DNA of 64,000 bases. Source: Gemmatimonadota bacterium (lineage in GTDB: Bacteria > Latescibacterota > UBA2968 > UBA8231). The translations under genes were made by a program, and so were the position numbers. The stretch lies in the NCBI GenBank assembly GCA_038153405.1, contig JAYOYH010000013.1, forward strand, positions 44,334 to 108,333, in the 5' to 3' direction. The notes under the pieces are model-generated. The model was not told the origin of the DNA and searched no databases. It worked only from the letters and a program-made list of their open reading frames with translations. How positions within the stretch are numbered: the stretch's first letter is position 1; each line of letters begins with the position of its first letter. This document shows positions 356 to 4,627 of this stretch, in pieces.

Positions 356-2035
356 CTATGGTTGCGCCAGATGGCGTTTGATCTGCTCGGGAAAGTGCGT
401 TAGCAAGCTGCGGGTTATATGGGGGGCGGCCGCGCCGAGTCCGCAGGCGCTAGTGGCCATCATGGTTGCGCCTATGTCTTCGACCTCATCGCGCCAGGCG
501 GCCAGATCGGTAAGTGGCGCAGTGGGACTGAGGCGTTCGGCAAGGCGCTGCGTGCCAATGCGGCAGGGAAAGCACTTGCCGCACGATTCCTCGGCAAAAA
601 AGTGCATGGCCTGGTGGGCGATCTCGACCATATTGCGGCTGTCGTCAAAGACCATGATGCCGCCAGCACCCAGAAAGGATCCGTGCGCGCGAATGGAGGG
701 ATCGTCCAGCGTGGCGTTGAGGCCGTCGCCGGCTAGGAAACCGCCCGACAATCCGGCCATGGTCACGGCTTGGATGCGCCGTCCCTCGAGCGGACCGCCG
801 GCCCAATCGCACAGCAGCGTTTGCAGCGGCAGGCCCAGCGGCACTTCGTAATTGCCTGGCTGCTGCACGTCGCCCGAGAGGCTGATGAGCTTGGTGCCGG
901 CAAAGTCGCCCAGACCCAGTGACTGGTACCAGGCGGCCCCGTGCACGACAATGGGCGCGACGGCGGCCAGCGTCTCGACGTTGTTTACGGCGGTGGGCTG
1001 GTCGTTAAAGCCGTGCGTGACCGGAAAAGGGGGGCGGTTGCGCGGGTAGGGATGTTTTCCCTCCAGGCTGTTGAGCAGGGAGCCTTCCTCGCCGCATATA
1101 TAGGCGCCGGCGCCGCGGCGCAGGTGGATATCGAAGGGTACGTCGGTTCCGCCGATATGGCGTCCGAGGAAGCCTTCGGCGCGCGCTTCATCCAGCGCCG
1201 TTGCCAATCGCCGTGCCGTTTCTGGATACTCGTAGCGCAGGTAGATAAAGCCGAGTTCCGCGCCCGTGGCGTAGGCGGCCAAGATCATTCCTTCGATAAC
1301 GGCATGGGGGTCGTAGTCGAGCAGCACGCGGTCTTTAAAACAGCCGGGCTCGCCCTCATCGGCATTGCACACGACGACCTTGGGGCCGCCGGGTGCCTCG
1401 GCTACGGCGCGCCACTTTTGCGCGGTGGGAAAGCCGGCTCCGCCGCGTCCGGCTAGTTGACTATCGCCGACGAGTTGGATGAGCGCCTGCGGACTATCTT
1501 GCAGGGCCTTGCCTAAGGCCAGGTAGCCGCCCGTGCGCCGGTAGCCTTCCATGGTATTGCGCTCTCCGTCGCGAATGTGGGCAAATAGACATTCTTCGCG
1601 GCCGCCGGGATTGGCCACGGGCAGGGCCGAGGGTTGGAGGGTGAGTGGGTCACCGGGTGCCGCTGTGTGTAGCCGATGGCCGATGAGCACGGGAATGGGC
1701 TGGTCGCAGCGGCCGGCACAGGGCATCTCGCTGGCCCCCTCCAATTGGGCTAGCAGTTGGTGCGCTCCGCGCTGACAGCAGATGGGGCCCGTGCAAACGC
1801 GCGGGGCCTGCTGGCCGGGGGGCTGTCGCGAGAAGTGATGGTAGAATGTGACCGTGGCATAGAGGTCGGCCAGGGGCGTGCGCAGCGCGCGCGCGATGGT
1901 GCGCAGCGCCTCATCGCTAAGGTAGCCATCTCGGTCGTGGAAGGCGTGCAGGACGCCGAGCAGAGGAGCCGGCTGATCCTTCCATTGGGCGATGAGGGCG
2001 TCGTCGGATATTGCCGGGTTTTGTTCATTGGACAT
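356..2035 (-). CDS. Fused NuoE-NuoF (FdsG/FdsB-like) diaphorase subunit
   Basis: N-terminal NuoE features (TFYHHF, CTGPIC...CAGRC); NuoF motifs GRGGAGFP, NADEGEPG, GAGAYICGEE, NNVETL and the [4Fe-4S] motif CGKCFPC...CGLG. Start set at MSNEQ (2035). Confidence 0.9.
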   Translation of the reverse strand: MSNEQNPAISDDALIAQWKDQPAPLLGVLHAFHDRDGYLSDEALRTIARALRTPLADLYATVTFYHHFSRQPPGQQAPRVCTGPICCQRGAHQLLAQLEGASEMPCAGRCDQPIPVLIGHRLHTAAPGDPLTLQPSALPVANPGGREECLFAHIRDGERNTMEGYRRTGGYLALGKALQDSPQALIQLVGDSQLAGRGGAGFPTAQKWRAVAEAPGGPKVVVCNADEGEPGCFKDRVLLDYDPHAVIEGMILAAYATGAELGFIYLRYEYPETARRLATALDEARAEGFLGRHIGGTDVPFDIHLRRGAGAYICGEEGSLLNSLEGKHPYPRNRPPFPVTHGFNDQPTAVNNVETLAAVAPIVVHGAAWYQSLGLGDFAGTKLISLSGDVQQPGNYEVPLGLPLQTLLCDWAGGPLEGRRIQAVTMAGLSGGFLAGDGLNATLDDPSIRAHGSFLGAGGIMVFDDSRNMVEIAHQAMHFFAEESCGKCFPCRIGTQRLAERLSPTAPLTDLAAWRDEVEDIGATMMATSACGLGAAAPHITRSLLTHFPEQIKRHLAQP

Positions 2036-2140
2036 AGTGTAATTAATATCAACGGGCCGCATCTGGTCAAGTCGTTTGATGGCGCGGCCGTATGATCGTA
2101 GATTGTGCAGTCACCACCGGTCAAATCGCGGAGAGCACGC

Positions 2141-3391: not shown

Positions 3392-3937
3392 ATGGCAGAC
3401 GTATTAATTGTGGGCGATGGCCCGGCCGGTTTAAGCGCGGCGCTCTTCTTGGCCAAGAACGAGATGAGCGTTAAAGTGTTTGGCCTAGACAAGACCTTGA
3501 TGCACAAGGCGATGGTCTTCAACTATCTGGGCATCCCGGAGATCACCGGCAGCCAGTTCCAGAAGATTGGTCGGCAGCAGGTGCAGCACTTCGGTGGGGC
3601 GTTGCTCGATGTCGAAGTGGATAGCGTGGAAAAAGTCGATGGGGGCTTCACCCTGCGTGCGGCGGACGGAACGGAGCACGAGGGGGCTTATTTGATTCTG
3701 GCCACGGGTCCGAGCAATCCGCTGGCCGAAAGCCTCGGCATCGAAAAGGGCGCAGAGGGCATGGTATCGGATCGCAATGGCCGCACCGCCATTGATGGAC
3801 TCTATGTAGTAGGGTGGAGCTCGCGCCTGAAGAAAATACAGGCCGTGATTTCGGCCGGCGATGGCGCCTGCGCCGCGCTAGATATTCTATCGGCCCGCGC
3901 TGGCGAAGATATGCATGATTTTGACGTGATCGAATAA
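3392..3937 (+). CDS. Short FAD-dependent oxidoreductase (thioredoxin-reductase-like, FAD domain only)
   Basis: VLIVGDGPAGLSAA dinucleotide motif, LILATG, T-x-I-D-G-L-Y-V-V-G, QAVISAGDG; no NADPH domain or CxxC. Confidence 0.8.
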   Translation: MADVLIVGDGPAGLSAALFLAKNEMSVKVFGLDKTLMHKAMVFNYLGIPEITGSQFQKIGRQQVQHFGGALLDVEVDSVEKVDGGFTLRAADGTEHEGAYLILATGPSNPLAESLGIEKGAEGMVSDRNGRTAIDGLYVVGWSSRLKKIQAVISAGDGACAALDILSARAGEDMHDFDVIE

Positions 3938-3994
3938 AAAATGGCATTCCTCCACGGACTCGGCCTTTTGGGCTTTGGCCGCGAAGGAATGCCA
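3936..3994 (-). terminator. Intrinsic terminator hairpin (minus strand)
   Basis: UGGCAUUCCUUCGCGG / CCGUGGAGGAAUGCCA followed by UUUUUU on the minus strand. Confidence 0.7.
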
Positions 3995-4015
3995 AGCGGG
4001 TAACACTCAGAGTTG
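3936..4015 (-). ncRNA. Candidate sigma54-dependent small RNA (~80 nt)
   Basis: Starts ~12 nt downstream of the -24/-12 promoter (4026-4042); ~21-nt single-stranded 5' part, 16-bp stem (3942-3957/3979-3994; two G-U pairs form only on the minus strand) and a U6 tail; no credible ORF. Confidence 0.6.
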
Positions 4016-4025
4016 CCTGTGAATT

Positions 4026-4042
4026 AGCAAGGCTCGTGCCAG
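4026..4042 (-). promoter_or_regulatory. sigma54 (-24/-12) promoter
   Basis: Minus strand CTGGCACGAGCCTTGCT matches the consensus YTGGCACG-N4-TTGCW. Confidence 0.8.
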
Positions 4043-4069
4043 CGCATAGAGCCGGCGTTGTGAATTTCC

Positions 4070-4082
4070 TAAATTCTTGATT
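4070..4082 (-). promoter_or_regulatory. IHF binding site
   Basis: Minus strand AATCAAGAATTTA matches WATCAANNNNTTR, with an adjacent A/T tract; typical position between a sigma54 promoter and its enhancer. Confidence 0.6.
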
Positions 4083-4095
4083 TTATTTGTTTTAT

Positions 4096-4141
4096 AAAAA
4101 TAGCGACGTTCTCTTTGCGCATGGAGAACGTCGCTATTTTT
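4096..4141. repeat. 18-bp perfect inverted repeat (bidirectional terminator-like hairpin or enhancer-protein site)
   Basis: AAAAATAGCGACGTTCTC-N10-GAGAACGTCGCTATTTTT. Confidence 0.75.
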
Positions 4142-4173
4142 TCTCTATGCGGTTGAATGTAGGGAGAATTTAT

Positions 4174-4207
4174 CCCCATTGCCTGCGCTGCCGTAGAGGC
4201 AATGGGG
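4174..4207. repeat. 11-bp inverted repeat
   Basis: CCCCATTGCCT-N12-AGGCAATGGGG. Confidence 0.65.
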
Positions 4208-4242
4208 CGGGGACGGACGATTGCCGAATGCCTCGTAAGTTG

Positions 4243-4272
4243 TTGACTTTTTAGAGTCGTAAGCATTATATT
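4243..4272 (+). promoter_or_regulatory. Putative sigma70 promoter
   Basis: TTGACT-N18-TATATT upstream of the ATG at 4310. Confidence 0.4.
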
Positions 4273-4309
4273 GCGATCAGTTCCTGTTCTTTCAGATGGG
4301 TGTGCAGCT

Positions 4310-4627
4310 ATGATCTGGACGATGTTAGCCATGCTCTGCGTGGTGGCTACGAAATTCCTCACCTCCGTGCGTCTGCGCGGGCTGCGGGCTAAGTTCGAAT
4401 CGATTCAACCTGAGATCGATGATCTGCGCCTTAAAGTGTCCCAGACCGAAGAGGAAATGGAAGCGCTGCGGTTGAAGGTTGAAGAACGAGAACAACTGCT
4501 CACCAACTTGGGCGATGTGGTGCGTGTTCTCGAAGATAGTTTGAAGCGGCCCATCACCGATGTCGACACGCAGGATCGCGTGCAACTTGTGGAGTCTACC
4601 GTCGTTGAAGAAGGGGCCGGTGTCTGA
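4310..4627 (+). CDS. Small membrane-anchored coiled-coil hypothetical protein
   Basis: Hydrophobic N-terminus (MIWTMLAMLCVVA) followed by an E/L-rich heptad pattern; ends before a terminator. Confidence 0.65.
   Translation: MIWTMLAMLCVVATKFLTSVRLRGLRAKFESIQPEIDDLRLKVSQTEEEMEALRLKVEEREQLLTNLGDVVRVLEDSLKRPITDVDTQDRVQLVESTVVEEGAGV

Follow-up and report, generated by a model that had tools for sequence, protein, structure and literature searches.

Background

To our knowledge, flagellar small RNAs (sRNAs) have been described in only a few proteobacteria. The sigma28-dependent sRNAs of Escherichia coli are Hfq-dependent. MotR and FliX of this organism are reported as sigma28-dependent, UTR-derived sRNAs that tune flagellum synthesis by base-pairing (PMC10578931). 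In Campylobacter jejuni, FlmE (CJnc230) and FlmR (CJnc170) base-pair with flagellar mRNAs in the RpoN/FliA cascade; FlmE is reported to be RpoN-dependent, to be processed from the flgE mRNA and to repress flgM and Cj1387c, and FlmR to be FliA-dependent (PMC11187230). The flagella-associated FlaX of Vibrio is described as blocking 30S binding on a flagellar mRNA (PMC11879080), and as being cut from the flaA 3′ UTR, ProQ-associated and directed at flagellin targets (PMC11879080; bioRxiv 10.64898/2026.08.28.747715).

The window analysed here is a stretch of 64,000 nt (coordinates 1-64,000) from a Latescibacterota genome, G000 in our numbering. A sequence-only reading of it had proposed a stand-alone, sigma54-driven regulatory RNA, a proposal that is supported by the present analysis and to which a flagellar link is added. 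Sigma54-driven sRNAs such as GlmY, Qrr1-5 and CrcZ run from a -24/-12 promoter to an intrinsic terminator and have an upstream activator site; of these, GlmY and CrcZ act as decoys for proteins, and Qrr depends on Hfq. The predicted RNA described here shares with them the promoter-to-terminator layout and a predicted activator site upstream, but it matches no Rfam family, and while the analogy to GlmY, Qrr and CrcZ drawn by the sequence-only reading holds for the sigma54 layout, the flagellar sRNAs FlmE/FlmR and FlaX are closer. Like FlmE and FlmR, it would be wired into the flagellar cascade and is predicted to pair with a flagellar mRNA; unlike them, it has its own sigma54 promoter far from the flagellar clusters, and its predicted target is fliO. 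Like FlaX, it is flagella-associated and is predicted to act by a 30S block. It differs from FlaX in that ProQ was not found (0/5 genomes), and from MotR and FliX in being sigma54-driven and stand-alone and in that Hfq was not found (0/6 genomes), with the proviso that in these genomes (93-100% complete), as in the five of the same completeness in which Jag_N was not found, divergent homologs could be missed. With its own promoter and with nearest neighbours that are not flagellar genes, it does not belong to the 3′-UTR-derived type of FlaX and FlmE and, by sequence, it is a member of no known flagellar sRNA system with which it was compared.

Results and discussion

Architecture of the locus

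The elements of the locus are collected in Table 1. The promoter claimed for the minus strand is present, and its position places the start at 4015, close to where it had been predicted, if the usual distance of 12 nt from the promoter GC applies, as we assume. The minus-strand sequence contains the 16-bp stem with its two G-U pairs and the U6 run (3941-3936) that overlaps the TAA (3935-3937) of the oxidoreductase, all as the sequence-only reading had it. The minus strand has a folding z-score of -4.58 (0 of 200 shuffles as good), compared with -2.64 for the plus strand, and the view of that reading that the region holds no credible gene agrees with the absence of any Pfam match for the nearby minus-strand open reading frames (4069-4362 and 3648-3995). 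The alternative CGGCC/GGCCG helix that it had drawn in the loop can form in the window, but is unlikely to matter for function, since it is missing even from the closest relative, G001, as well as from the rest of the alignment. A weak hairpin of 4-5 bp is predicted by folding to take in part of the seed. The RNA hairpin was not listed by the terminator scan because its 21-nt loop exceeds the limit of the tool.

Table 1 Features of the sRNA locus (window coordinates)
Feature	Position	Strand	Remarks
Sigma54 -24/-12 promoter	4026..4042	-	17 nt; GG at 4040/4039, GC at 4028/4027
Predicted small RNA	3936..4015	-	80 nt; +1 predicted at 4015; 3′ end in U6
Conserved 5′ seed, type I	3996..4012	-	CUCUGAGUG(U/G)UACCCGC; predicted base-pairing region; flanks vary
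Terminator stem-loop	3942..3994	-	16-bp stem (3994-3979 paired with 3957-3942); variable apical part
U6 tail	3936..3941	-	Overlaps stop codon of convergent gene
IHF-like site	4070..4082	-	-67 to -55; exact consensus match
Predicted activator-binding palindrome	4163..4176	.	Common to flagellar sigma54 promoters; motif score 10.4
Convergent Pyr_redox_2 oxidoreductase	3392..3937	+	Neighbour outside the RNA; assigned by Pfam
Divergent small coiled-coil gene	4271..4627	+	Neighbour outside the RNA; sigma70-like promoter (4243-4272) ahead

The divergent coiled-coil gene is a frequent neighbour of the RNA in family f1 only. Two strong inverted repeats lie upstream of the promoter (4095-4142 and 4175-4207) in a region with a z-score of about -6; the first has runs of A and T on its flanks, resembling a two-way terminator, and its GAGAAAAA edge lies in a motif that 21 of 40 homologs have retained at 85-135 nt upstream. 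Further away, 356-2062 (minus strand) encodes a 568-aa protein with 2Fe-2S thioredoxin-like, Complex1_51K, SLBB and NADH_4Fe-4S domains, a NuoE-NuoF-like fusion.

A new sRNA family

The genome set comprised 132 members of this Latescibacterota class and 36 genomes of the phylum outside it. The RNA was found in 41 of the 132, of which 26 are in the family of the window and 3, 4 and 8 in three others. Built from 31 members, which necessarily match it, a covariance model reached E<1e-6 in these 41 genomes, and the best value in the other 91, among the matches listed, was 0.0017. The 40 complete homologs are 66-90 nt long (median 83). Their promoters read TGGCA..TTGC in 34 of 41 homologs, TGGCA..TTGT in five and TGGTA in one, with a degenerate -24 box in one more. 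The spacing between promoter and seed is fixed, the 17-nt 5′ segment (4012-3996 in the window) is nearly invariant in the alignment of relatives, and DNA similarity of the window to relatives ends exactly at the promoter. A second seed type, in the three other families of the class, has CUCUGAGUGGUACC in common with type I and then continues with GAUUGGUC. The strict sigma54 promoter pattern occurs five times in G000, compared with about two expected by a hand estimate; the motif alone is not rare, and it is raised above chance by its joint conservation with spacing, 5′ segment and terminator in 41 genomes.

Two-sided changes were observed in nine of ten pairs of the basal stem, and 91.6% of cells are paired, compared with 49-66% in slid controls and with none of 500 shuffles as high, a shuffle test that relatedness inflates. 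The U-tract stays on the RNA strand even where the downstream gene is not convergent. Neighbouring genes differ widely across the loci, the oxidoreductase being replaced in most, and some of them lie on the same strand, indicating that the RNA is a stand-alone unit and not the terminator of the oxidoreductase; a cis element of that gene was rejected because the neighbours vary. Thus a conserved -24/-12 promoter stands at a fixed distance, and rpoN and enhancer-binding proteins are encoded in G000, as for sigma54-dependent sRNAs, and a conserved single-stranded seed is combined with a conserved terminator independently of the neighbours, as for trans-acting sRNAs. The apical stem of type II members (L132-L144) has a conserved internal loop, G-UAG-GA-ACC...GGU-GA-C, which is similar to a kink-turn.

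A metagenome scan for promoter plus seed returned 35 matches, 30 of type I and 5 of type II; each runs into a GC-rich hairpin, and 33 end in at least four T. Viral contigs gave 0 matches, so that no phage copy was found there. Pattern searches of the 36 phylum genomes outside the class gave no member, and neither blastn nor the covariance model detected a second copy in G000. Exact matches to the seed in GTDB numbered 34, of which the 13 in other phyla were rejected as family members, being without promoter and terminator. Two promoter-plus-CTCTGA matches outside the class, without seed and terminator, were also rejected; one of them sits in what we take to be the IF3 coding region. No Rfam 15 family matched at gathering level in the window, or on the RNA in 10 relative loci. 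The best overlap with the RNA region was narK, at 13 bits against a threshold of 43.2 (E 8.4), and the RNA reaches the gathering threshold of no Rfam 15 family, GlmY/GlmZ, Qrr, CrcZ, Pxr and T-box included where modelled. Likeness to a T-box, assessed by its motif, was rejected, as many members have U or A in place of the key G and there is no gene downstream. A small protein encoded by the RNA was rejected as well: none of 26 type I members has a Shine-Dalgarno (SD) sequence plus start, and the 11 type II matches lie inside the hairpin.

Judged by these sequence comparisons, the RNA constitutes a real, new sRNA family that is class-restricted in the searches made. The proposal of a stand-alone RNA is borne out by a unit kept beside differing neighbours, with promoter and hairpin conserved in relatives through compensatory changes and with no match to a known family in the Rfam scan; rpoN, for which that reading had called, was found in the genome, and the exposed 5′ seed that it had pointed out has predicted targets whose sites co-vary with it, as described below.

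Probable membership of the RNA in the flagellar regulon

A gene for sigma54, rpoN, was found in 129 of the 132 class genomes, including G000, which also has 17 matches to sigma54 activators (13 at E<1e-65). As rpoN is present nearly everywhere, loss of sigma54 was rejected as the cause of the patchy range of the RNA. Flagellin, by which genomes were classed as flagellated, is encoded in 54 of 132; all 41 RNA genomes are among these 54 and none of the 78 non-flagellated genomes has the RNA (Fisher 4e-23, a value that kinship overstates). RNA and flagellin occur in exactly the same genomes within genus g14 (5 of 31) and within family f4 (4 of 22), and of the ten genomes of genus g18 five are flagellated, four of these with the RNA. 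The 13 of 54 flagellated genomes without it indicate that the RNA is dispensable. With relaxed filters, ten RNA-less flagellated genomes gave a best E of 0.012 and short promoter-like matches only; the absence from G099, G101 and G161 (76-90% complete) may reflect assembly gaps. In two genomes of the same genus, G003 and G007, the RNA is gone together with a 118-aa neighbour gene from an intact syntenic site. These two genomes (loci L010 and L014) are smaller, and keep flagellins; DUF5610 was not found in them.

A 14-bp palindrome motif, learned only from 33 fliO upstream regions, had a mean score of 8.3 over 40 sRNA promoters, compared with 2.8 in shuffled sequences, none of the 30 shuffle sets reaching this level; for its occurrence in the window (4176-4163), 0 of 30 shuffles scored as high. 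In G000 it is also found ahead of flgB, flgF and three flagellin-like genes (scores 9.9-15.3), and it scored low at the sigma54 promoters of a pspA-like (-0.6) and an amtB-like (-0.3) gene, where the names pspA-like, amtB-like and flgB are those that we presume from the protein starts. High scores were also obtained at 2 of 10 other promoters. An IHF-like site with at most one mismatch to what we take to be the consensus, by which the site at 4082-4070 was judged as well, was present in 15 of 41 upstream regions, a modest enrichment (shuffled mean 4.7, maximum 14), and at two mismatches there was no excess over shuffles. By the measure of promoter sequence and genome range, the RNA is a probable member of the flagellar regulon. 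Two very large G000 genes (C46:817 and C9:82417) also have a sigma54 promoter and palindrome scores of 11.4 and 12.7, and are possible unrecognised members of this regulon.

The seed and the fliO leader change together

The first 22 nt of the RNA were scanned for pairing against the start regions of 3984 script-predicted G000 genes. The fliO gene (C53:8560-9147) ranked 2 of 3984, at -25.7 kcal/mol. A sigma54 promoter of its own precedes it, and in its leader of ~25 nt the site starts ~2 nt after the predicted +1; the predicted duplex of 15-18 bp spans positions -24 to -9, the ribosome-binding region, and includes the conserved GAGAG element of the leader. Full-length cofolding, the one pairing energy here that takes account of accessibility, gave a gain of -16.9 kcal/mol.

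Of 37 fliO orthologs, 34 have a usable leader (24 in RNA-bearing and 10 in RNA-less genomes). A leader site was significant (p<0.05) in 20 of the 24 RNA-bearing genomes against G000 start regions, which served as the null for every genome, so that these p-values, with kin also non-independent, overstate significance. In each of the 20 passing genomes, which represent 10 genera, the best fit to the leader is that of the seed class carried by the same genome, indicating that seed and fliO target change together. Opposite UU seeds the leader reads ...GGGUAACACU, and opposite GG seeds ...GGUACCACU; G118, the only genome with a GAUU seed, has GGGAAUCACUC there, and the sequence facing type II seeds is (G)ACCAAUC. 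Three or more changes in the seed are mirrored in this way, and thus, as for a trans-acting sRNA, a distant mRNA site is complementary to the seed and covaries with it. No significant site was present in 4 of 24 RNA-bearing genomes (G078, G079, G119 and G158), and 3 of 10 RNA-less genomes (G154, G156 and G157) passed p<0.05 with the best of five seeds. In G003 and G007, where the RNA is lost, the fliO site has decayed. Among 28 genes of the G000 cluster contig, compared in up to 11 genomes, only fliO pairing is kept (7/11, Fisher 9e-10), the next-best gene reaching 2/10 (Fisher 0.009).

DUF5610, flagellins and other candidate targets

Rank 1 of 3984 was a DUF5610 gene (C14:97887-98474; -26.5 kcal/mol, cofolding gain -15.6 kcal/mol). 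This gene is present in 42 of 132 genomes, all flagellated, and is preceded by a -10 box that we take to be sigma28-like. Among the 28 of 42 orthologs scored (the G159 and G103 rows being left out of the counts for wrong starts), a site over codons 3-9 reached p<0.05 in 5/5 g1 and 5/7 GG-type genomes and in 1/8 RNA-less ones; it was found in 0/4 g14 genomes and in 0/2 type II genomes with a clear start. Another site, at the predicted 5′ end, was found in 5/5 g1 and 2/4 g14 genomes. The codon before the DUF5610 core is AAU or AAC with UU seeds and ACC, ACG, ACA, UCU or UCC with GG seeds. In seven type II genomes (G078, G079, G080, G100, G103, G105 and G106) the gene lies 6-15 kb from the RNA gene, a proximity that suggests an old linkage of regulator and target.

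The flagellin at C1:205822 ranked about 40, rising to 3 when a 13-nt seed was used, with a cofolding gain of -12.0 kcal/mol, and the start of the g1 flagellin ortholog pairs with the seed in G000 (p 0.009) and G001 (p 0.001). By hand count, a mismatch-free seed complement occurs in 8 of 95 flagellin starts of RNA-bearing and 1 of 17 of RNA-less genomes; these rates are not different, which suggests that the MPLRV start largely explains the match. Some flagellins are possible, as yet unproven, additional targets by these sequence matches. As targets, fliF (rank 47 in G000, site kept in 2/10 genomes) and fliA, flhB and other flagellar cluster genes (pairing not conserved) were rejected. G000 has nine flagellin-domain matches (C1:160000-207000, C8:103871, C14:50564 and C59:13106), several of whose leaders carry GGA hairpins beside the SD, consistent with CsrA-FliW control; the leader of the flagellin at C1:182015 has a further hairpin element kept across the family.

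Proposed mechanism and alternative explanations

The anatomy of the RNA, its conservation, its flagellated-only range and the in-step complementarity of seed and target are features of the genomes themselves. The reading that we favour, at a probability of about 0.72, is a stand-alone sRNA predicted to pair with the fliO ribosome-binding region and likely to repress translation, the likely sign of regulation being judged from site position only. The flagellar sigma54 activator would induce the RNA along with fliO, flgB, flgF and some flagellins, as expected from the upstream palindrome common to these promoters. The seed would then pair with the ~25-nt fliO leader without Hfq or ProQ, helped by the length of the duplex (15-18 bp), and this pairing would block 30S loading and lower the amount of FliO. 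FliO is reported to protect FliP and to promote export-apparatus assembly in Salmonella (PMC5542435), and is described as a core component, present almost universally, by which FlhB is stabilised in C. jejuni (PMC12403147). FliO, encoded first in the run fliO-P-Q-R-flhB-flhA, would act as the FliP chaperone here, and less of it would cap or delay assembly of the export gate, making the circuit an incoherent feed-forward loop. In family f1, the RNA would also pair with the start of the sigma28-type DUF5610 gene and so restrain a late gene in the middle phase. More speculatively, lower FliO could also feed back on the RpoN regulon, whose expression is reported to need the export apparatus in Helicobacter pylori and C. 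jejuni (PMC3930126).

The same RNA and the same pairing could instead activate or stabilise, by shielding the 5′ end of the fliO (and DUF5610) mRNA or by opening an inhibitory fold. The fliO site beginning ~2 nt past the predicted +1 would suit such shielding, as would the second DUF5610 site at the predicted 5′ end (g1 5/5, g14 2/4), and FlaX is described as both activating and repressing flagellins (bioRxiv 10.64898/2026.08.28.747715). However, the duplex with fliO reaches -9, covering the conserved GAGAG element inside the 30S footprint, and the main DUF5610 site covers codons 3-9, so that we consider activation unlikely. Slightly less likely is a flagellar sRNA directed mainly at a gene other than fliO (DUF5610, a flagellin or a gene beyond the clusters examined), with the fliO leader as a secondary target or a sponge. 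The first rank of DUF5610 in G000, its position 6-15 kb from the RNA in seven type II genomes and the pairing of the g1 flagellin start (p 0.009 and 0.001 in G000 and G001) are in keeping with this, and the cross-genome comparison covered one gene cluster, but no site other than that in fliO is kept with both types of seed, and each change in the seed is followed there.

A role as a protein-binding decoy, whether a CsrA/RsmA sponge or the ligand of another protein via the apical stem, appears very improbable. CsrA and FliW are encoded in the flagellar cluster, and the type II internal-loop motif is kept with a GGA in it; on the other hand, two unpaired GGA are predicted in only 4 of 40 RNAs, one in 13 and none in 23, so the family does not show the several loop GGA of a CsrB/RsmZ-type sponge. 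No L7Ae-family protein, a possible partner of the type II loop, was found in any of five genomes, and the conserved part of the RNA is a single-stranded seed that covaries with an mRNA. Least probable of all, we would give only a slight chance to there being no RNA gene, the hairpin terminating transcription of the convergent oxidoreductase and the match to a promoter being incidental. Although the hairpin abuts the oxidoreductase stop codon and the strict promoter pattern is found five times in the genome, the U-tract belongs to the minus strand, the promoter, seed and terminator recur as a set next to many different neighbours, same-strand ones included, and the 13 seed matches in other phyla have neither promoter nor terminator.

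Returning to repression of fliO, the RNA is likely, on the comparative evidence, to tune flagellum building via the message of an export-machine assembly protein. In its widest form, to which we give even odds, this would be an ancient, class-wide, Hfq/ProQ-independent checkpoint at the export gate, co-induced with fliO by the flagellar sigma54 activator, throttling the FliP chaperone and a late sigma28 gene, co-evolving with its target base by base in four families, lost whenever flagella are lost and accompanied in some lineages by a longer, hairpin-locked sister released from a 3′ UTR; DUF5610 would then be tied to the flagellar regulon. With its promoter, target, predicted activator site and naturally occurring compensatory variants, the family lends itself to a direct test with heterologous reporters even though its hosts are mostly uncultured. 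It would point to export-gate assembly as a post-transcriptional control point, supply a clear example from nature of a seed and its target coevolving in the absence of Hfq and ProQ, and give a first functional lead for DUF5610. A literature search, by title and start of abstract, found no sRNA regulation of fliO; nor did it find a description of a Latescibacterota sRNA, which subscription papers or the motif tables of comparative screens could hold, or anything on DUF5610.

A longer sister and a further candidate RNA

A longer sister of the type II RNA, without a sigma54 promoter, is present in G028, G026, G030, G102 and G098 of families f2/f3 (L148:1430-1590 and 1616-1745, L149, L147, L150 and L254). 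It sits after the stop codon of a conserved low-complexity gene of 310-360 aa, which has no significant Pfam match, and it has two extra 5′ hairpins, with the seed forming part of a third. G028 and G026 have two copies in tandem, the second of them preceded by a sigma70-like promoter. From this arrangement, the longer sister is possibly a 3′-UTR-derived sibling activated by processing, or a sponge.

Elsewhere in G000, structured sequence of ~160 nt and then a terminator with a U tail lie behind a second strong sigma54 promoter (C61:15743-15930, plus strand; L256:1244-1430). This unit has no clear open reading frame and is a candidate second sigma54 sRNA; a similar unit is found at G018:C97:10035-10167 (L255).
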